DNA of 64,000 nucleotides from Candidatus Saccharimonadales bacterium (GTDB taxonomy: Bacteria; Patescibacteriota; Saccharimonadia; Saccharimonadales; UBA4665): NCBI GenBank assembly GCA_050730755.1, contig JBOHNR010000008.1, positions 79,968 to 143,967 on the forward strand, read 5' to 3'. Under the pieces are notes generated by a model, which made no database searches, was not told the DNA's origin, and saw only the letters and a list, made by a program, of their open reading frames with translations. Both the position numbers and the translations under genes were made by a program. Positions 3,252 to 40,644 of this stretch are shown here, one piece after another. Numbering within the stretch: position 1 is the first letter of the stretch; each line of letters opens with the position of its first letter.

Positions 3252-4784
3252 ATGGCGAGGATTGCAGCCGGTAAGATTTGGGCAATACTGAGTAGCCGAC
3301 GTTTTTACCTATTAATTTTAGGTTTTTTCGTCTTTGAGTCAGCCTGGATTGCCCTGTCGGCCGTTTACCCCCAAGCTTTCGATGAGGACTTCCATTTTGG
3401 CCTCATCAAGCTCTATTCTCACTACTGGCTGCCGTTTCTTGCCCACCAACCACCCGGGGGTGATGCCTTTGGAGCGGTAGCTCGCGACCCTTCGTACCTT
3501 TTTCACTACCTGATGAGCTTTCCTTACCGGTTGATAACACTCTTCACTCACAATCAAACGCTCCAGATAATTTTGCTTCGTTTTATCGATATTGTCTTCT
3601 TTGGCATCGGTTTAATTCTATTTCGTCGTATCTTACTTCGAGTTGGCGTTTCTCGGGCGCTGACTAACACGACACTTTTTTTGTTTACCCTTATCCCGGT
3701 CGTACCCCTAATTGCCGGTCAGATCAACTACGATAATTTACTTTTCCCGCTGGTCGCCTGGAGCTGTCTGCTAACTTTTCAAGTTATAGATGAAATTAGA
3801 CAAAAGAAACCGTCGGCCAAAAGTTTAATCATATTAATCACTGTTTGTTTGCTGACTAGCCTAGTAAAGTACGCTTTCCTACCGATTTTTGCGGCCATTT
3901 TTCTGTTTGTACTCTATTTGATATTTCGAAATTACCGATCTCAGTTTAAAAAATTCTGGCAAGAACTTTTGGATAGCTTTGGCCATCTGAACCTGTTTTC
4001 AAAGATAATCTTAATTTTAATACTCCTTCTTAGTCTTGGCATGTTTGCCGAGAGGGACGGCGTTAATCTTGTAACCTATCGTACTATCGCCCCGAATTGC
4101 AGCCAGGTCTTAAGCCTAAAACAATGCGACCAGAACAGTATTTTCTCAACCGATCTAGGGCGGCACCAAAAGGTCGTCGCCGATCCGGCCTTAGTTTCCC
4201 ACGACCCGATTACTTATGTCGGCCAGTGGTTATATTGGATGTGGTACCGCCTATTCTTTTCTATAAATGGTCCAACTAGTAACTATGTTAATTACCCGCC
4301 GCTACCGCTACCGGCTTTAGGCGGCGCCTTGATAGCTACCCTAGCTACCTTGGCTATCATTAGGTGGTATAAGCGTCTTTTTTATAAGAAACCTTATCTT
4401 TCGTTCCTGGCTCTAGCTAGCTTGATCTATATCTTGGCTCTTATCTTTGAAGGTTACGAGTACTACAAATACACCGGCGTTTTGGAACTAATGAACGGTC
4501 GTTATCTGTTGCCGGTACTGCTACTGCTGGGCGCTATGGCGGCACTGGCTTTTAGCTGGGCACTTCGTAACCGGATGACTTATAAACTAATTGCTGTCTT
4601 TGTAGCTTTTATTTTATTTATGCAAGGTGGTGGATTTTTGACGTTTATCGCTAGCAGTGACTCGACCTGGTACTGGCCTAACCAAACTGTCGTCAAGGCT
4701 AACGCTGCCGTTCGCCACGTGACTAACCATGTCGTCGTCAAAGGCAAAAAGACCCCCCCCAGCCAGTTTTGGATCATTCCGTAG
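3252..4784 (+). CDS. GT-C-fold-like polytopic membrane glycosyltransferase (ArnT/PMT/DUF2142-like)
   Basis: 510 aa with more than 10 hydrophobic helices. First-loop acidic motif AFDEDFHFGL resembles the DExxHF of the DUF2142 paralog at 18124. Confidence 0.45.
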   Translation: MARIAAGKIWAILSSRRFYLLILGFFVFESAWIALSAVYPQAFDEDFHFGLIKLYSHYWLPFLAHQPPGGDAFGAVARDPSYLFHYLMSFPYRLITLFTHNQTLQIILLRFIDIVFFGIGLILFRRILLRVGVSRALTNTTLFLFTLIPVVPLIAGQINYDNLLFPLVAWSCLLTFQVIDEIRQKKPSAKSLIILITVCLLTSLVKYAFLPIFAAIFLFVLYLIFRNYRSQFKKFWQELLDSFGHLNLFSKIILILILLLSLGMFAERDGVNLVTYRTIAPNCSQVLSLKQCDQNSIFSTDLGRHQKVVADPALVSHDPITYVGQWLYWMWYRLFFSINGPTSNYVNYPPLPLPALGGALIATLATLAIIRWYKRLFYKKPYLSFLALASLIYILALIFEGYEYYKYTGVLELMNGRYLLPVLLLLGAMAALAFSWALRNRMTYKLIAVFVAFILFMQGGGFLTFIASSDSTWYWPNQTVVKANAAVRHVTNHVVVKGKKTPPSQFWIIP

Positions 4785-15039: not shown

Positions 15040-17424
15040 TCAGTAAAGAGTTTGACTAATCAAAAATAGAGAAAGATCAGCGTTATTAATTACACTTGCC
15101 GGATGATTTAGTCCGCCATACGCAATGAAAGCGCTCATAGTAGCGACATAATGAATTGCCCCACCTGATGCATAATATATTTCACTGTTATCTGTATCGT
15201 ATAAGAAAGGCGAAAGCTGAGGAGCCTGAACGTTCTTTATTGTTTGAGTGCTAGCACTTTGAAATTGTGAGTTGATTACACCGTAATCACCAGCAATTCC
15301 CGATGGAAGACTATACATGCTATTTGTACCCACAATATAATAGACATTGTTTGCCAGACTATTTCCTAAAGGTAATGACGCCACGGGGTAATCGCTGACT
15401 ATTGTAGAAGGACAATTTATTACACCTCCCCAATTAAACCCATAAGCGTTGAAAATGGTTGGACTAGGAATCCATGTAGTTTCACCGTTATTTATAACAT
15501 ACAGCTTTTGCTGACTGTCTCCTTGAATAGCAATAATAGTACCGTCACCAAGAGCATAATTACCCTCGGTTGCGCCCTGTACTTTATCTGGCTCCAAGTT
15601 TGTTGTCTGATCTGCTGTTATCCCCAGGTTATAGTAATCCGTCATAGTTGGTACATAGTGAGTCATTCCGTTACTTAGCTCATAAATATCTTGCCCGGTC
15701 CACACATATTCCTGTAAAGTGGTCTCTGGCAAGCTATTTGCAAGAACCTGGGGCTGTTTATTAAATGTCGCATATTGCCATACGCTCTGAAGAGATGTTG
15801 GGATTTGGATGCGACGCCCTTGGTTAATTATGTATAAACTATCACTCGAGTCCTCATACCATGGGCTTAGGGTTAAAGAACTGGGCGGAGTTGTTGTGTA
15901 ACTGGAGGTTGGCACGGCTAATTTTGGGGCATTATTAAGAGCCCAATCGTAGTAGCTTTCCATGTTAGGTACTGAATAGTAAGTAGATCCATCATAATAA
16001 TAAATCGTTGAGCCAGGTGAAAATTCCAAAACACCTGGCGTTGCCATGAGAAGAGATCCCAGTGGCTGATTTGAGTTCTCAGCGGATGATACGAGGACAT
16101 CCGTGCTATTGAGGCCAAGATCAATTAATGTTTGGGGATTTGCTATTGGTAGCTTTTGTCCAGCTGACATCTCATATATGACACCATTTTGATCAGCTAG
16201 ATTTGTAAGTGGCCAACCAGTTTGCAAAAACTGATTTTCGAATGTAGTACCTAGATCCTGAACTACCGTATCATCGTAGCAACTTAGTCCCCAGGCGGTG
16301 CACATAGTCGGGGAAAGATAATAAGTAAAACCATTATTAACTAAGTAGACGTTCCCATTATCAGATATTAGATTTGAAAGTGTTCCTTCATTTGTATATT
16401 GGGATAATGTAGCATCAGATACGGTCTGCACTGGGTAAATACTAAGACCGTAATTAATCATAGTATCCCAGTTAGGGATGTAATAACTACTTGAGCCAGT
16501 TATGAGATAAATCATACCTGTTGACTGTTGGTAATCCAGCGATGCTCCTAGGGGTTGAGCAAATATGGTCGAACCAAACCAGGACGTAAATATGTTATAA
16601 AAATTCTCGTTACCAGCAAAATGTGGAGTGTACCAATAAAGAGCTGCCGTTGCCCCATCGTCCATCTGAACTGAAGAGCCGTCTATCGTTGTGTAGCCGT
16701 CATAGTAAGTGCTGCCTCCGCCTGGGCAAATCTGCCAAGTTCCTTGTGTCATAGGTCCGCTGTAGCATGTTTGAGGATCATCGGAATTATTCCAATTACC
16801 TTGGATTACCGCCCAGCTTATATTGCCTTCTGATCTTTGGTCACCAAACTCAAGTAACCACGCAGCGTGAATGACTTGTTGCGAAAATCCAACCTCTAGC
16901 GACTTATTGACACATGTGCCACTAACGGATGTTACAGCGACTCCGTTGATGGAATATAGTTCTATCCCAGAGTAATTATATTCAGTACCACCATCAGGGC
17001 ATCCATAGCCAGTAGCTGCCGCGTAGCGTAAAGTGCTACACCCAGAACTGCCGTCAACAAGACTTTGCTCCTTTTGGAGCGTCGTAAGTAAGACCTCAGG
17101 ATTAATACCATAGGCTTGCGAAGCATCATAAATTACTTGTCCTGCACTTACATTACTTCCGTAGAGAAAACCATCTGTTGGGTTATATCCTGTAGGGTCT
17201 GGTGCACTAAAACCAGCGTCAGTGCTTATACAGCTCGTACTACCAAAATTCGAGTTTAGCCAACTATCTATTTGGGTAGCATTCATTGTGTTTGTATTGT
17301 TAAATACTCCATCATCAATAATATTGTCTGGATTAAAACTGTCAGCAGTAGCGTTGGAAACAAGCGATAAACAGCACGTTATTGCTATAAACAGTAAGAC
17401 CAGAACACGGATTCCATGCTTCAT
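15040..17424 (-). CDS. Secreted 794-aa repeat protein, function unknown
   Basis: Signal peptide MKHGIRVLVLLFIAITCCLSLVSNATA. N-terminal Cys-containing domain with GINPEVLLTTLQKEQSLV. Nine C-terminal repeats of the type [IVL]Y-x4-G-x3-Y-[IV]-P-x7-[YW]-G-[LF]. Confidence 0.6.
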   Translation of the reverse strand: MKHGIRVLVLLFIAITCCLSLVSNATADSFNPDNIIDDGVFNNTNTMNATQIDSWLNSNFGSTSCISTDAGFSAPDPTGYNPTDGFLYGSNVSAGQVIYDASQAYGINPEVLLTTLQKEQSLVDGSSGCSTLRYAAATGYGCPDGGTEYNYSGIELYSINGVAVTSVSGTCVNKSLEVGFSQQVIHAAWLLEFGDQRSEGNISWAVIQGNWNNSDDPQTCYSGPMTQGTWQICPGGGSTYYDGYTTIDGSSVQMDDGATAALYWYTPHFAGNENFYNIFTSWFGSTIFAQPLGASLDYQQSTGMIYLITGSSSYYIPNWDTMINYGLSIYPVQTVSDATLSQYTNEGTLSNLISDNGNVYLVNNGFTYYLSPTMCTAWGLSCYDDTVVQDLGTTFENQFLQTGWPLTNLADQNGVIYEMSAGQKLPIANPQTLIDLGLNSTDVLVSSAENSNQPLGSLLMATPGVLEFSPGSTIYYYDGSTYYSVPNMESYYDWALNNAPKLAVPTSSYTTTPPSSLTLSPWYEDSSDSLYIINQGRRIQIPTSLQSVWQYATFNKQPQVLANSLPETTLQEYVWTGQDIYELSNGMTHYVPTMTDYYNLGITADQTTNLEPDKVQGATEGNYALGDGTIIAIQGDSQQKLYVINNGETTWIPSPTIFNAYGFNWGGVINCPSTIVSDYPVASLPLGNSLANNVYYIVGTNSMYSLPSGIAGDYGVINSQFQSASTQTIKNVQAPQLSPFLYDTDNSEIYYASGGAIHYVATMSAFIAYGGLNHPASVINNADLSLFLISQTLY

Positions 17425-36059: not shown

Positions 36060-36548
36060 ATGAGCGAGAAACTAACTGATCCCTCAAAAATGCTCAGACC
36101 AACCAAGAAACAACGCCAGCTACTGACATATATTGAGCAGTTTATTACTGAACACGGCTACAGTCCCAGTTATCGGGAGATAATGACCGGGCTTAATTAT
36201 ACTTCCGTGGCAACGGTAGCACTGCATGTTAATAACCTTATATCGCGCGGTCATTTAAAAAAGCGCGGCTACTCAGCTCGTTCTATAGAGTTAACCAACC
36301 AGGTAGGGGAGTTGTTAGTTACGACCAATCAGGTTGAACCGGCCGAAGAAAAATGGCTGGTTCAAAAGGTCGAACACAGTTTCAGACAAGTTGAACAATC
36401 AGGTGGACTCTTCAGTGACAGCCAACTTAATGGTTTATATATTTTAGTCGGAGCCTTGAATGTGCTTGGTCTGGAGGCTGCCGCCCAAAGCTTCCAATCT
36501 CGTCTGAGCGTACTCAAAAAACGCTCTACCGATCGCCGACCAGCTTAG
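36060..36548 (+). CDS. LexA-type winged-helix DNA-binding-domain protein lacking the S24 peptidase domain
   Basis: PTKKQRQLLTYIEQFITEHGYSPSYREIMTGLNYTSVATVALHVNNLISRGHLKK matches the LexA N-terminal domain. The C-terminal 90 aa show no Ser/Lys autoprotease motifs. Confidence 0.55.
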   Translation: MSEKLTDPSKMLRPTKKQRQLLTYIEQFITEHGYSPSYREIMTGLNYTSVATVALHVNNLISRGHLKKRGYSARSIELTNQVGELLVTTNQVEPAEEKWLVQKVEHSFRQVEQSGGLFSDSQLNGLYILVGALNVLGLEAAAQSFQSRLSVLKKRSTDRRPA

Positions 36549-37794: not shown

Positions 37795-38481
37795 ATGCCA
37801 CATAAACAAAATCAGTTTCCGCGCTTGCCAAAAGAAACATCACAGTTATCACAACTATCCCCAAAACCAGAAAAACCGTCTAGATTAAATCAAAAATTTA
37901 AGCGAAAAGTTGCAGCTGGTATAGCAGCTGCCGGACTTTTGATTGGTGCCGGGGCTTACGTTTCAAATACTCAAAATAAAGTTAATTCCCAGAAACAAGA
38001 AATTAGCACACTACATAAAGATCTAAAAGCAAATGTCATAAATGCTCAGGAAGCTGCCTCCGCGGCAGCCGCCTACACTGAAGTGCTTAACAGCGGTTCA
38101 AAGGCTTATGTCCAGATATTGTATGGGAAATTGGACTATATAGGTGCCAAACCGAGTTTAAACTCGATTGAAGCACCGATAGTACTTATTAAAAATGGTA
38201 AATCTCTAACAGGAAGCTGGCTAGGTGCTATAGTCGACGAGCCTATTGGCCGGGTAGTAGTTGAAGCCATACCTTTCCAAGGTGGTCAATACCGGTTTGA
38301 GCCTTATGATCCTCAGAGCGATAATGCCCTTAAAATAGTTGATTTAGAAACTAATTTTGGTAAAACCGGTGTTTATGTAACGGCTATTGAGGGATCTAAT
38401 AGCGATCCATCCCATCAAAAGACTCTAACCAGTCCTGATGGATCGATTTTACAGCCTGGGCTGCAACTAGGCATGAAATAA
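37795..38481 (+). CDS. Hypothetical membrane-anchored protein
   Basis: Start placed at ATG 37795 (the track gives TTG 37777). TTGCTA-17nt-TATGGT promoter ends 6 nt before the ATG. TM AAGIAAAGLLIGAGAYV. Confidence 0.45.
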   Translation: MPHKQNQFPRLPKETSQLSQLSPKPEKPSRLNQKFKRKVAAGIAAAGLLIGAGAYVSNTQNKVNSQKQEISTLHKDLKANVINAQEAASAAAAYTEVLNSGSKAYVQILYGKLDYIGAKPSLNSIEAPIVLIKNGKSLTGSWLGAIVDEPIGRVVVEAIPFQGGQYRFEPYDPQSDNALKIVDLETNFGKTGVYVTAIEGSNSDPSHQKTLTSPDGSILQPGLQLGMK

Positions 38482-38540
38482 GACACGCCTTTTGAAAATG
38501 TTAATTTGATAATATTACTTCTTGTAGACACCTGAGTGTA

Positions 38541-38570
38541 TTTATGGGCGCTGGTCTAGGCTGTTATAAT
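38541..38570 (+). promoter_or_regulatory. Sigma70-like promoter (extended -10 TGTTATAAT) for the riboswitch-led transcript
   Basis: TTTATG (38541-46), 18-nt spacer, TGT-TATAAT (38562-70). The predicted TSS lies a few nt before the aptamer. Confidence 0.4.
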
Positions 38571-38584
38571 ACTAAACGTTAACA

Positions 38585-38715
38585 ATCAAAACCGGAATCA
38601 GGGTGAAATTCCCTGGCTGTGCCGCAACTGTTATAGCCAGATACGGTTAAAGTCTCCCGAGCAGGAGCGGCGAATTGATTAAAAAACCCTGGCTCGGCAA
38701 AAGAGTGAGGGTATT
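38585..38715 (+). promoter_or_regulatory. Candidate cobalamin (B12) riboswitch, compact/variant type
   Basis: Core string AACCGGAATCAGGGTGAAATTCCCTGGCTGTGCCGCAACTGTTATAGCCAGATACGGTT (38590-38648). It contains a CAGGG/CCCTG hairpin with a GUGAAAUU loop, GCCGCAACTGT (consensus CCCGC[AC]ACUGU) and AGCCAGATAC (B12-box-like AGCCAGGAGAC). The closing helix is AACCG/CGGTT. A CCGAGC-AGG/CCT-G-GCTCGG hairpin (38657-38697) and SD GAGGG (38707-11) follow. Confidence 0.55.
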
Positions 38716-38723
38716 TTTTAAAA

Positions 38724-39881
38724 GTGGCCGCAAGAGCTGAAAAGCTACCTGGACAATATGACAATCACGATCAAATTGATCGTCAGTTAGGTTTATACGA
38801 TGAAGCTTCGACTTTATTCGCCGAAACTCTTGATGGCAACATGCGGACCGAGTTTTTACTCCGCTTTGACGGAGAAGAGCTTTATAGTCACGACGGCCAG
38901 GCCTTAAAGTCTGTTTTTCAGGATTCGATAAATGCGGCTGAGAAACTAGCCGAAAGCCAACCTAATTTTTTATTCGAACTAAGACGACGTCAAATCGAAC
39001 TAGAAGAGTATCAGGATATGCTGGCTTTGGCACGAAGTGGAAAGCATAACACCATGGTAGTAGTATCGGACTTTCCACCTGAACTGATGACTGCAAAAGA
39101 AAGTATGGGTGGCTATAATAAAAGCCGCCAACAAACGATGTTAAGAGTCATTACGCGGCAAGCTGGCGGGTCGCTGAGAATGATCTCGCAGAGCTTGGAT
39201 CGTTCCAACCGCCCAGCTCTGGAGGCTATTTACGCTCATTTCGGACTTAAACCAAATGACGGCGAATTGTTAGGCCAGCGGATCTTCACTGAAATTGCCC
39301 AGGAAGAGCAAGTTTATCTGGATGATTTTTTAACTGGTCTTTATGATAAGTCTTTGACTGATCAATACGGTGGTCATTGGTATGCTGGGCGAAGTAGTGG
39401 AGACACCGACAACACCTATGACTTTGTCAGGCGGCAATCTGATTTATTGCACTATTATGTCCAGTCCAGGCTAGATAATTCAGATTGGGTTGAAAAACTA
39501 GACTATAACGTGGCGGCAACTTTTGCCAAACGTTTCAAGCGATATTCAGAGCTTAAATATGACTACCAGTTTAACCCCTCTGGACTACCCCACAATCTAA
39601 TGGCTGAAGTAGCCAATGACGGCGCCAAAGCTCAGGCTCAAGGTCTTAGTTTCAACAGCTGTGGTACTACGCTTGGGCCGTCTGAATCGGATCTTCAAAA
39701 GGCCGGTTATGGGAATAAGACAAATGAAGCTAGTTCGTATAAGTTTGATAAAAAGATGTACTGCGTTGTTTGCCAGGTACCACCCAAAGAAACCGAGAAA
39801 CCGAAAATGTGCGGACCTTGCGGCATCTGTCAAAAGTGTGACCTAAAACTTAGTAGTCACCCAAAAGTCACAGTCATTTAA
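38724..39881 (+). CDS. Uncharacterised 385-aa protein with a C-terminal six-Cys cluster
   Basis: Long clean ORF. GTG start 12 nt after GAGGG (first in-frame ATG only at 38838). No TM or signal peptide. C-terminus MYCVVCQ-x14-CGPCGICQKC (zinc-ribbon-like). I recognise no family. Confidence 0.55.
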   Translation: MAARAEKLPGQYDNHDQIDRQLGLYDEASTLFAETLDGNMRTEFLLRFDGEELYSHDGQALKSVFQDSINAAEKLAESQPNFLFELRRRQIELEEYQDMLALARSGKHNTMVVVSDFPPELMTAKESMGGYNKSRQQTMLRVITRQAGGSLRMISQSLDRSNRPALEAIYAHFGLKPNDGELLGQRIFTEIAQEEQVYLDDFLTGLYDKSLTDQYGGHWYAGRSSGDTDNTYDFVRRQSDLLHYYVQSRLDNSDWVEKLDYNVAATFAKRFKRYSELKYDYQFNPSGLPHNLMAEVANDGAKAQAQGLSFNSCGTTLGPSESDLQKAGYGNKTNEASSYKFDKKMYCVVCQVPPKETEKPKMCGPCGICQKCDLKLSSHPKVTVI

Positions 39882-39981
39882 GTAAAGATTAATTTAAGAT
39901 AACTATTTCCCGATCAACCAGGTGTCAATTCATTCAAATACCAACCTAAGATTGGTCTAATCGGATTTTTTCAATAAGTTT

Positions 39982-40644
39982 CTAGCTTGGATTTTGCTTA
40001 GCTATGGCCGCATTCAGATAGGTCGAGAAGGCAGCCACGCTTGGTTCATCGTTAGAACCGATCAGATTTTCGTTATTTAAAGTTTTACCGTCAAGAATAA
40101 AGGTGGGTGTGGCCATTTCGTCGCCAGTCTTATTGAAGGCAGCGATGTCAGCGTTGATAGCGTTATTGACTTGATTGCTGGCGTAGTCCTTGTTAAAAGT
40201 AGTCATATTTAAGCCAAGTTGTTTGGCATAGGAATCGAAGTAGGTTAGGGGGTTACTCGATGATACCCACTGGGTTTGGTTATCGTAAAGTAAATCGTGC
40301 ATCTGCCAGAATTTATTCTGGTCACTGGCCGCTTCAGCTGCCCGAGCACCGGCAAAAGCATTAGGGTGAATTTGGGTCAGCGGCAGATTACGGAACTGGA
40401 ACTTTATTTGAGTTATATAATCGGCCACGACTTGCTTAACTGTCGGGTAAAACTCTTCGCAAATAGGGCATTCATAATCGCCATACTCGATTAAGGTAAC
40501 ATGTTTAGTGTCACTGCCCTCGACATGCTCAGTTGGCTTAGTGTTAGTATTGCCTGAGTTTGCCTGATTATGATTAGTCACTAAGACAATGCCACCAAGT
40601 ATAGCCGCGATAATTATAACTGCTAACCAAAATTGTTTTGACAT
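39982..40644 (-). CDS. DsbA-family thiol:disulfide oxidoreductase, membrane-anchored
   Basis: N-terminal TM and thioredoxin-fold CxxC (YECPICEEFYP). Confidence 0.7.
   Translation of the reverse strand: MSKQFWLAVIIIAAILGGIVLVTNHNQANSGNTNTKPTEHVEGSDTKHVTLIEYGDYECPICEEFYPTVKQVVADYITQIKFQFRNLPLTQIHPNAFAGARAAEAASDQNKFWQMHDLLYDNQTQWVSSSNPLTYFDSYAKQLGLNMTTFNKDYASNQVNNAINADIAAFNKTGDEMATPTFILDGKTLNNENLIGSNDEPSVAAFSTYLNAAIAKQNPS

Follow-up and report, generated by a model that had tools for sequence, protein, structure and literature searches.

A compact class-II cobalamin riboswitch precedes a gene with a probable part in cobalamin handling in Saccharibacteria

Positions 38576–38653 (+ strand) of a 64,000-nt stretch of a Candidatus Saccharimonadales MAG (GCA_050730755.1, contig JBOHNR010000008.1, 79,968–143,967 forward; the whole stretch is hereafter ‘the window’) form, on comparative sequence grounds, a genuine compact class-II (AdoCbl-II) cobalamin riboswitch aptamer that is predicted to bind its ligand. 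The locus is best explained by this aptamer together with a relay acting as an OFF switch and a cytoplasmic gene product involved in cobalamin handling, a combined reading that we consider likely. Cobalamin riboswitches are the most widespread riboswitch class, and the element itself is an ordinary, though neatly minimal, representative of an already known class.

Searching the whole window with cmscan at gathering thresholds matched RF01689 (AdoCbl-II) at 38576–38653 (+) with 46.2 bits and E 5.8e-8, against a gathering score of 36.5 bits; the alignment spanned the full model (positions 1–81 of 81), with two deletions in the window aptamer. Apart from three tRNAs there were no other Rfam matches in the 64 kb and no second riboswitch, and as the only riboswitch match at such a score, RF01689 lies far beyond chance. 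Our own covariance model, CM R1, built from 17 leaders, scored 98.4 bits over 38567–38670. RF01689 was the best match within clan CL00101 (overlapping lower-scoring clan matches were dropped), and the aptamer was not assigned to class I (RF00174), as it has no P6 insertion and RF01689 scores higher. A first-pass annotation, made from the sequence alone, had proposed a compact class-II-like aptamer here, and the checks that it suggested, a covariance-model search with RF01689 and a look for conserved, covarying stems in relatives, both came out in its favour: beside the Rfam match, the element is conserved upstream of the ortholog in nearly every related genome and its proposed stems covary strongly.

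The aptamer resembles RF01689 and its structural prototype env8HyCbl in its four-way junction P3–P6, its core strings and a P6 without peripheral extension. P1 (38576–38581 with 38648–38653) is weak, A/U-rich and formed by five of six pairs in the Rfam alignment; a TTAACAA box (38579–38585), whose sequence is kept across leaders, covers the 5′ strand of Rfam P1 and the start of J1/3. P3 pairs AACCG (38590–38594) with CGGUU (38644–38648), P4 is a hairpin of CAGGG (38599–38603) and CCCUG (38611–38615) around loop L4 UGAAAUU (38604–38610), P5/L5 (UGU-GCC-GCA) occupies 38618–38626, and P6 pairs CUG (38628–38630) with CAG (38638–38640) across a 7-nt loop. The string GCCGCAACUGU lies at 38621–38631 and the B12-box-like AGCCAGAUAC at 38635–38644. 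J3/4 GGAA, L4 GUGAAAUUC, GCCGCAAC and AGCCAGAUAC are upper-case consensus positions of the RF01689 alignment, and their columns are invariant among leaders; the L5 loop has one nucleotide fewer than that of the model. All strings that had been read on the + strand in the first pass were found in place, including CAGGG-UGAAAUU-CCCUG (38599–38615), GAGGG (38707–38711) and the GTG at 38724, the closing helix AACCG/CGGUU proved to be P3, and the absence of a P6 extension agrees with the 7-nt loop.

We found this architecture preserved throughout the relatives of the regulated gene. CM R1 matched 61 times, in 60 of 64 sources, every match lying on the + strand and upstream of the orthologous gene; at Rfam gathering thresholds, 8 of 16 loci had a cobalamin-clan match ahead of the ortholog. 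Of 53 leaders, 52 carried the L5 motif and 47 that of the downstream hairpin P13, and the L5 core was invariant in 60 of 61. Across the 61 leaders P3, P4, P5, P6 and P13 all covary, 15 of 20 pairs changing on both sides; paired cells amounted to 95.6%, versus 78% in shuffles and 31–47% with slid partners, and compensatory cells to 200 versus 59 ± 6, pairing counts that are somewhat inflated because the alignment (A5) was fitted to our own structure. Within the aptamer helices P3–P6, 11 of 16 pairs change on both sides and 88–100% of cells are paired per helix. These changes affect four of the five P3 pairs (ACCG/CGGU versus GCUG/CAGC) and, as compensatory changes, four of the five P4 pairs, where 95.4% of cells are paired; the closing pair of P5 is U-A in 52 leaders, A-U in 7 and G-C in 1, and the middle pair of P6 is G-C in 39 and U-A in 19. 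All four stem pairs of P13 change on both sides (98.7% of cells paired; variants CUCC/GGAG, CUCU/AGAG, CUUC/GAAG, AUCC/GGAU and UUCC/GGAA). Covariation of P1 was not established among the leaders, the flanks being A/U-rich and poorly aligned.

The lack of a P6 extension is shared by 22 of the 61 orthologous leaders; P6 inserts range from 5 to 98 nt, and 39 leaders carry 10–98 nt. Some leaders with P6 insertions score as RF00174 in Rfam, and so do those of L002, L003, L004 and L007. Class-I riboswitches (RF00174; E. coli btuB, T. tengcongensis) share clan CL00101, the core and the kissing-loop principle with the window aptamer but also have a P6 extension and further peripheral parts that it lacks. 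The ortholog leaders form a natural series in which one riboswitch runs from zero P6 extension to 98 nt, and which could help to study the contribution of the extension to ligand selectivity.

Upstream of the aptamer, a candidate extended −10 element (TGnTATAAT; TGTTATAAT, 38562–38570, +) would place the transcript start near 38576–38578. This element, already noticed in the first pass, fits by sequence and position, and in 40 of 56 related leaders a −10-like TAnACT box precedes the TTAACAA box by 7–9 nt; a simple sigma-70 consensus scan nevertheless called no promoter in 38400–38800, because a −35 box was not found. Downstream, the regulated gene (38724–39881, +) encodes 385 aa from a GTG start, 12 nt from its Shine–Dalgarno (SD) sequence GAGGG (38707–38711), compared with 7–9 nt in relatives, in which the order GAGGG, U-rich spacer and AUG is kept.

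Between aptamer and gene we identified three elements that could form an expression platform, all on the + strand. P13 is a short hairpin of CUCC (38654–38657) and GGAG (38664–38667) around loop L13 CGAGCA (38658–38663). Next to the gene, RNAfold predicts a terminator-like hairpin (38686–38712; −14.4 kcal/mol) in which ACCCUGGCUC (38686–38695) and GAGUGAGGGU (38703–38712) enclose the loop GGCAAAA, with the SD in its 3′ arm and an A followed by six U directly after it (38713–38719). The third is an alternative pairing across 38657–38697, of CCGAGC(A)GG (38657–38665) with CCUGGCUCGG (38688–38697). Of the claims made in the first pass, an SD between aptamer and GTG stood, with the addition that it lies within a further hairpin followed by a U-run; a second hairpin at 38657–38697 can form but is best read as an antiterminator alternative; and translational control is compatible with a sequestered SD but overlooked that the hairpin is also terminator-like and that switching would run through a P13/kissing-loop relay.

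We propose that cobalamin bound in the P3–P6 four-way junction would bring L5 (38620–38624) into a kissing interaction with L13 (38658–38663) and so lock P13 (38654–38667). CCGAGC would then be unavailable, the hairpin at 38686–38712 would form, and with the SD buried and a U-tract behind it both transcription termination and a translation block would be possible. In the absence of cobalamin, CCGAGC(A)GG would instead pair with CCUGGCUCGG, the 5′ arm of the hairpin, as an antiterminator and anti-sequestrator, leaving the gene on. B12-dependent repression is therefore the predicted effect and the most likely sign of regulation.

Several observations bear on this relay. In the window, six base pairs (CCGAGC/GCUCGG) are possible between the P13 segment and the terminator 5′ arm. 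In 43 leaders these segments shared a longest complementary run of 6.7 bp on average, compared with 4.8 bp for control windows; stretches of at least 7 bp occurred in 53% of leaders versus 9% of controls; none of 5000 simulated means reached the observed complementarity, a count that gives no exact probability, since the leaders are related. Matching changes in the antiterminator pairing were seen in L010 (CUAGCA with UGCUAG) and L016 (CGAGCUA with UAGCUCG). The energies favour one state: the terminator state of the window was computed at −21.0 kcal/mol and the forced antiterminator at −14.1, and with the terminator about 7 kcal/mol more stable, expression without ligand would need kinetic control.

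The proposed kissing loop joins UGCCG of L5 (38620–38624) to CG(A)GCA of L13 with −4.3 kcal/mol. L5 and L13 are nearly invariant among leaders; the L13 variant CUAGCA in L010 is uncompensated in L5, and U38620 and G38624 are also paired with each other in P5 by the model. PMC10327014 gives UCCCG as the L5 consensus of the class and describes a kissing loop with a bulge for env8; the window differs from the consensus in reading UGCCG, with a matching G-to-C change in L13 (CG-A-GCA). An initial candidate pairing, of L5 GCCGC with GCGGC at 38667–38671 (part of the long hairpin's loop), was abandoned in favour of the conserved CGAGCA loop of P13, as the GCGGC string is conserved in no relative.

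As in env8HyCbl, P13 lies downstream of the aptamer and its loop is complementary to L5 with a bulge, but the P13 of the window does not contain the SD and is followed by a separate putative antiterminator/terminator relay. [quoted passage not shown] The window differs in that the competing strand is the P13 5′ half plus loop (CCGAGC), or loop plus 3′ half (GAGCAGG), rather than the 3′ side alone, in a terminator 3′ arm that includes the SD and would allow dual action, and in its compact class-II aptamer.

It is possible, though rather unlikely in our view, that the switch is purely translational, the hairpin at 38686–38712 only hiding the SD and the U-run being an A/U-rich spacer at which no termination occurs. 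Control of translation is known from class-II cobalamin riboswitches, env8 among them (PMC10327014), and a strict consensus scan called no terminator in 38400–38800, because the stem has an internal G-G mismatch. In 14 of 53 leaders, moreover, our own one-mismatch scan found no hairpin with U-run, while the SD-containing complement was usually retained. Against this, the same scan detected the hairpin followed directly by at least five U within 8 nt in 39 of 53 leaders, the window included, with the SD in the 3′ arm in 34 of these, and in the window an upstream A-run (38681–38686) complements the U-run, as in strong terminators. The transcriptional and translational modes are in any case not mutually exclusive, and a combined OFF relay remains our preferred reading, whatever balance between the two modes it may strike.

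The regulated protein is identical to the NCBI entry ‘MAG: hypothetical protein ACREF5_01810 [Candidatus Saccharimonadales bacterium]’ and has 409 homologs. No family was matched above cut-off in Pfam (best zf-HC3, 14.1 bits versus 25) or NCBIfam (a cytidine-deaminase model, 20.8 bits versus 129), a PDB profile search gave a best E of 0.6, and Foldseek searches against PDB and BFVD with two independent models gave no match at E ≤ 1e-3, with TM ≤ 0.19; the AF2 model has a pLDDT of 89.1. A PCGxC similarity to cytidine/blasticidin deaminases was set aside as far under cut-off and limited to the Cys motif, and the source-record names ‘Mn-containing catalase’ (P0005) and ‘DUF1610 Zn-ribbon’ (P0267) had no Pfam support.

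Profile comparison by hhalign did link the Saccharibacteria orphan family to a Levybacteria/Microgenomates family, C1 (95.7%, E 1.1e-8, 328 columns; unrelated controls at most 1%), and in AF2 models of the two proteins the secondary-structure elements follow in the same order. We group these in a CPR ‘C-G motif + Cys-ribbon’ superfamily, defined in the present analysis rather than curated, marked by a Ser-Pro strand and a ‘C-G’ cysteine, both invariant, and by a Cys ribbon at the C-terminus. The small clusters C3, C5, C18 and C20 and several singletons were not significantly linked to the orphan family by hhalign, and their putative membership follows from motif architecture. The first-pass description of the gene as an orphan thus held for annotated families but missed that its product is a cytoplasmic, soluble member of a large, CPR-wide and structurally unassigned superfamily tied to B12 uptake, adenosylation and NrdJ.

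These ties came from gene neighbourhoods. We had expected the L5 and CGAGCA pattern to be private to the orphan gene, but the orphan was found at just 4 of 81 metagenome sites (HMM, E ≤ 1e-5), and the search was therefore widened to a larger regulon. Superfamily members often come first behind riboswitches of this type: among 59 metagenomic sites, the leading gene encoded a ribbon-architecture protein in 21 cases, a DUF4430/transcobalamin-like protein in 15 and PduO in 2. One locus (L033) has the order riboswitch, DUF4430, DUF6580 and a homolog of the orphan. In two Levybacteria genomes we found NrdR, NrdJ (TIGR02504, 588.8 bits versus a cut-off of 399.95), an RF01689 riboswitch (57.5 bits), PduO (TIGR00636) and the C1 protein in this order, and in L186 the PduO stop overlaps the start of the C1 gene. 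The fifth gene of L111 (788 aa) was rejected as NrdJ, its sequence resembling a P-loop ATPase. In Saccharibacteria the gene stands alone behind the switch at most loci: no PduO or NrdJ was found within ±4 kb at 63 loci or within ±10 kb at L188. The window likewise holds no B12 enzyme, transporter or biosynthesis gene among the 37 ORFs scanned, in agreement with the first pass, and local HMMs found no DUF4430, DUF6580, PduO or transcobalamin-like protein there.

By guilt by association, we infer that the product acts in cobalamin handling after uptake, processing the cofactor or passing it towards PduO adenosylation and NrdJ. Candidate roles are removal or exchange of the upper ligand, cobalamin reduction, or escort from a DUF6580-type importer to PduO and then NrdJ. 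The known cobalamin-trafficking proteins BtuM, CblC/MMACHC and PduO-associated reductases we take to be functional analogues of this role; like them, the regulated protein would be a conserved-Cys protein whose gene accompanies those for B12 uptake and adenosylation and is under B12 repression, but it resembles none of them in sequence or fold and is soluble, whereas BtuM is a membrane protein. We advance more tentatively, as a serious possibility that still falls short of probable, that the superfamily has a novel fold and fills a gap among the cytoplasmic steps by which ultra-small bacteria salvage cobalamin, with the 385-aa protein as its Saccharibacteria member.

The product might instead be a B12-independent substitute, following metE or nrdAB logic, behind a real aptamer. 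B12-independent isozymes such as MetE are classic targets of OFF cobalamin riboswitches, the solitary position of the gene in most Saccharibacteria loci would suit such a substitute, and the protein is enzyme-like in its many invariant charged residues and invariant Cys. We nonetheless judge this unlikely: no similarity of the product to a known enzyme fold was found, the relative in L033 is co-transcribed with B12 capture and uptake genes, and others lie directly after PduO and next to NrdJ, contexts that a function in cofactor supply fits better than the replacement of a cofactor user.

The same contexts bear on the sign of the switch, which would be reversed if, as in A. halodurans cobT, ligand-stabilised P13 prevented the terminator or sequestrator and turned the gene on with B12. 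An ON corrinoid riboswitch of this kind is known (PMC10327014), and the terminator is the thermodynamic ground state in the window, so that some input must oppose it. In the ON design, however, P13 and terminator share nucleotides, whereas here 38654–38667 and 38686–38712 do not overlap, and P13 overlaps the strand that pairs with the terminator 5′ arm, as in the OFF geometry of the metE type. This type of riboswitch otherwise precedes uptake genes and PduO, classic targets of repression by B12, and we regard an ON switch as very improbable. A chance match or decayed, non-sensing relic, which a score that clears the gathering threshold by only about 10 bits, the weak P1 and the two deletions might suggest, has next to no probability and appears effectively refuted by the comparative data: the element keeps its place in about 60 genomes with proteins only 27–53% identical, and this, together with the invariant core and the many compensatory changes, indicates purifying selection on the structure.

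Among the papers searched, none connected Saccharibacteria or any other CPR bacteria with cobalamin riboswitches, and nothing relevant was found on CPR/Patescibacteria with DUF6580 or B12-dependent RNR. Saccharibacteria symbionts have tiny genomes and no B12 synthesis, and yet about 60 genomes keep a structured 150-nt leader for one gene without an assigned function. In other CPR lineages, related riboswitches govern this gene's relatives along with transcobalamin-like binders, a DUF6580 membrane protein and PduO, beside the AdoCbl-dependent NrdJ, which suggests that CPR bacteria have a regulated bottleneck where B12 is supplied to deoxynucleotide synthesis. The pairing of riboswitch and gene throughout the group points to an undescribed protein family, probably one that handles B12. 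The riboswitch serves here as a signpost, and the true lead is the protein that it regulates, which can be tested as a candidate for a new cobalamin-handling step; if the proposal is true, it would be a new component of B12 trafficking found through its riboswitch.

We scanned the window with cmscan at Rfam gathering thresholds and found a single riboswitch, a match to RF01689 (AdoCbl-II) at 38576–38653 on the + strand (46.2 bits, gathering score 36.5; E = 5.8e-8; model positions 1–81); the other Rfam matches in the 64 kb were three tRNAs. The first-pass annotation had proposed a compact cobalamin riboswitch before ORF 38724 from a set of strings, all of which were found on the + strand by sequence inspection: the P4 hairpin CAGGG-UGAAAUU-CCCUG (38599–38615), GCCGCAACUGU (38621–38631), the B12-box-like AGCCAGAUAC (38635–38644), and AACCG (38590–38594) with CGGUU (38644–38648), its closing helix, which is P3 and is supported by covariation. 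Aligned to RF01689, the window places its P4 hairpin, GCAAC-GU string and B12-box-like AGCCAGA at conserved model positions; loop L5 has one nucleotide fewer than the model, and pairing is weak in the outer part of P1/P3. Its score, covarying helices P3–P6, conserved core and lack of a P6 extension place the aptamer in class II (RF01689), and it does not qualify as class I. This RNA is very probably a genuine cobalamin riboswitch, with ligand binding predicted.

Scanning a single genome for each species gave 63 loci encoding relatives, and every record that names a lineage is from Saccharibacteria/Saccharimonadia. Of the first 16 loci, eight had a cobalamin-clan match at Rfam gathering thresholds, to RF01689 or RF00174, immediately 5′ of the gene and in its orientation. 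Of 53 leaders, 52 contain the L5 motif NGUGCCGCN'AC and 47 the CUCC-CGAGCA-GGAG hairpin. We built a covariance model on 17 compact leaders, annotated with P3–P6 plus the downstream hairpin P13; it gave 61 matches, spread over 60 of 64 sources, every one upstream of the gene on the gene's strand, and matched the window once (38567–38670, 98.4 bits). Standard pairs filled 95.6% of cells in the alignment of these matches, compared with 78% after shuffling and 31–47% with slid partners; both sides had changed in 15 of 20 pairs, and all five helices were individually supported. Compensatory cells numbered 200, against 59 ± 6 in shuffles and at most 35 in slid controls, counts that are biased upward by an alignment fitted to the model but exceed the controls by a very large margin.

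The P6 loop or extension is anywhere between 5 and 98 nt long in an alignment of 61 leaders of this single orthologous riboswitch family (A5; ≤9 nt in 22, 10–30 nt in 25 and >30 nt in 14), and four leaders (L011, L047, L049 and L052) carry L4 insertions of 21–44 nt. Rfam splits these orthologues, some to RF00174 and others to RF01689. Several contigs held two matches to the riboswitch covariance model: L062 (462–576 and 641–739), L135 (418–531 and 1130–1229), L128 (532–579 and 1075–1182) and L078 (255–366 and 1456–1560). The L062 matches, only ~65 nt apart, may be a tandem arrangement, and those of L078 head separate operons.

The extended −10 element proposed upstream is present as a string, TGTTATAAT (TATAAT; 38562–38570, +), but a strict consensus scanner called no promoter, and no terminator, at the element. 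A −10-like box (TACACT, TATACT, TAGACT or TAAACT) occupies the equivalent position in 40 of 56 related leaders, mostly 7–9 nt 5′ of a TTAACAA box that lies at the 5′ edge of the aptamer and is kept as sequence, not through covariation; P1 is weak in the window.

Directly 3′ of the aptamer lies P13 on the + strand (CUCC, 38654–38657; loop CGAGCA, 38658–38663; GGAG, 38664–38667), with four of four stem pairs covarying and a loop, L13, that is almost invariant. L13 is complementary to L5 (UGCCG, 38620–38624) as CG-A-GCA with one bulged A (duplex −4.3 kcal/mol), a pairing for which the near-invariance of L13 leaves covariation uninformative; a bulged kissing loop is known in env8 (PMC10327014). 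Compared with the class consensus L5, UCCCG (PMC10327014), the window has a C-to-G change, and L13 carries the matching G-to-C. Further 3′ on the + strand, ACCCUGGCUC (38686–38695) and GAGUGAGGGU (38703–38712) form the arms of a hairpin (−14.4 kcal/mol) followed directly by A + U6 (38713–38719), with the SD GAGGG (38707–38711) inside the 3′ arm and the GTG start at 38724. A hairpin with a U-run recurs in 39 of 53 leaders, and in 34 of these the SD lies within its 3′ arm.

In a competing fold, CCGAGC(A)GG of P13 can pair with CCUGGCUCGG (38688–38697, +), the 5′ arm of the SD hairpin; a ‘second hairpin’ described earlier can form, but we re-read it as this alternative pairing. Among the relatives, the P13 segment and the stretch immediately 5′ of the SD share a longest complementary run of 6.7 bp on average; windows drawn at random from those loci give 4.8 bp, and runs of ≥7 bp occur in 53% versus 9%. 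Variants of L13 are mirrored downstream (CUAGCA with UGCUAG in L010; CGAGCUA with UAGCUCG in L016). In the window the terminator state is favoured over the antiterminator by ~7 kcal/mol, so an ON state would have to be under kinetic control. An extra hairpin, with a loop of about ACUCGUAAG, lies between P13 and the terminator, 10–45 nt after P13, in nine of 56 orthologous leaders (L028, L031, L032, L035, L042, L045, L046, L047 and L049) and is absent from the window; its CUCG complements CGAG of L13, so it could be an additional L13 competitor or decoy.

[quoted passage not shown] The window shows the same layout of P13 and antiterminator, with a putative kissing loop and a putative terminator that, here, contains the SD. 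By analogy, L5–L13 kissing in the cobalamin-bound state would stabilise P13 and the SD-containing terminator hairpin would form, and in the ligand-free state CCGAGC(A)GG would pair with the terminator 5′ arm. Because the platform matches this mutagenesis-dissected architecture, the element would be an OFF switch through which B12 represses the gene by way of termination, translation initiation or both; the translational control first suggested is one part of this reading, in which the SD hairpin also resembles an intrinsic terminator. An OFF switch working through this relay is the likely reading. An ON switch would run against the metE-like platform and is improbable, and a decayed relic, for an element whose helices covary as here, is extremely so. 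As a riboswitch, it is an ordinary addition to the known RF01689 (class II) type, given its class II features and metE-like platform, with minor variations: a UGCCG L5 with compensating L13, and orthologues ranging from no P6 extension to 98 nt.

The regulated ORF (38724–39881, +; GTG start) encodes a 385-aa protein, hereafter the orphan, identical to an NCBI protein of a Candidatus Saccharimonadales MAG. It has 409 homologues of about 380 aa, all unannotated, and an HMM run exhaustively against 1.84 billion representatives found 475 members of the family. Pfam returned only a below-threshold zinc-finger match for it and no domains for ten more distant members (465–503 aa), and its profile matched no PDB sequence. 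Cytidine-deaminase identity was rejected, the NCBIfam match being a PCGxC motif below threshold. A confident AlphaFold2 model from an 84-sequence alignment (pLDDT 89.1, pTM 0.79) had no Foldseek match in PDB or BFVD at E ≤ 1e-3 (TM ≤ 0.17). The family conserves an RRRxIExxEY helix, a NTMVVVSDFPPEL strand, ELLGQR, an invariant Cys in FSGCG and a C-terminal CVVCQ...CGPCGxCxxC cluster. In P0092, P0110 and gene 1 of L073, CVVCQ...CGPCGICxxCD is swapped for C..S.CxTRP...VGPCSVCxxCQ...D.G.DP plus a longer tail, and since these minority members carry a different Cys motif the ribbon module appears exchangeable. Inspection by eye showed neither a signal peptide at the N terminus nor a hydrophobic membrane-spanning segment, so the orphan is probably cytoplasmic.

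In Saccharibacteria the orphan is usually alone behind the switch, within a conserved neighbourhood of LexA-like protein, orphan, NadD-like protein, DsbA and CBS. The first of these is a 162-aa protein in the window (36060–36548, +) with a LexA DNA-binding domain only (PF01726, 46.9 bits) and no peptidase domain match, conserved upstream in 38 of 64 clustered sources (63 related loci plus the window). The gene for the NadD-like cytidylyltransferase (PF01467) comes next after the orphan, in the same orientation, at 48 of the 63 loci (for example, L033 2575–3180 and L188 11554–12153); it is absent at window 39882–39981, the next gene being a convergent DsbA-like ORF (39982–40644). No other B12-related gene was found in the window, in agreement with the first-pass annotation. 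Two large ORFs of a cell-envelope polysaccharide gene cluster, 15040–17424 (−; 794 aa) and 3252–4784 (+; 510 aa), had zero Pfam matches.

In L033, a locus from Saccharibacteria, three genes in one operon follow the riboswitch: DUF4430 (57.5 bits), a domain found in the C-terminal region of transcobalamins (PMC4350170), then DUF6580 (148.9 bits), a polytopic membrane protein, and last an orphan homologue. A metagenome scan with an L5...L13 DNA pattern gave at least 80 loci, and the covariance model confirmed at least 71 sites among the pattern matches listed. Of 59 sites with a readable downstream gene among the matches listed, the first gene encoded a ribbon-architecture protein (‘SPPG’ strand, ‘G-C-G/P-G’ motif and CxxC...CxxC ribbon) at 21 (6 by orphan HMM, 15 by motif rule), a DUF4430 or transcobalamin-like binder at 15, the adenosyltransferase PduO at 2 and DUF6580 at 1; 20 were unclassified, several of them also with ribbon motifs by eye. 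Pfam confirmed DUF4430, DUF6580 and Cob_adeno_trans among downstream genes and matched none of ten ribbon proteins. On contig L101 (Ga0172381_10070239; riboswitch 2606–2735, −), DUF4430, DUF6580 and a heliorhodopsin gene (PF18761, 317.9 bits), unexpected beside B12 uptake genes, form one apparent riboswitch-controlled operon. The riboswitch type precedes two other genes at L097 (3205–3329, +) and L086 (5833–5943, −), and gene 1 of the former (526 aa), judged by eye, has twin-arginine and Fe-S motifs and looks like a reductive dehalogenase; given these genes, the L5/L13 variant would extend beyond CPR-like contigs.

C1, the biggest of the remote clusters, has its members in Candidatus Levybacteria, Microgenomates and ‘Patescibacteria group’ bacteria, and it is homologous to the orphan family over nearly its full length (hhalign 95.7%, E 1.1e-8, 328 columns; unrelated controls ≤1%). 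The term orphan, from the first pass, is apt in that there is no annotated family, but by this homology the protein belongs to a CPR-wide superfamily. In the C1 AlphaFold2 model (pLDDT 88.5), the secondary-structure elements follow one another as in the orphan model, and it too lacks a PDB match. Two Levybacteria genomes have the gene order NrdR, NrdJ, riboswitch (RF01689, 57.5 bits), PduO (TIGR00636) and C1 protein; this NrdJ is an adenosylcobalamin-dependent RNR (TIGR02504, 588.8 bits against a 399.95-bit cut-off), and in L186 the C1 gene start overlaps the PduO stop.

The best-supported inference is that the orphan handles cobalamin in the cytoplasm after import and ahead of adenosylation or NrdJ use, because its relatives are co-transcribed with capture/import genes and PduO, adjoin NrdJ and share a B12 repression that is itself predicted. 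We propose this role tentatively, at or a shade short of an even chance; the main rival, in which the orphan replaces a B12-dependent function without needing B12, is unlikely beside these capture, import and PduO partners. The literature searched contained no account of this superfamily. What is new here seems to be the target of the riboswitch: a CPR-wide protein superfamily without structural match, one of those most often encoded by the first gene after riboswitches of this type.
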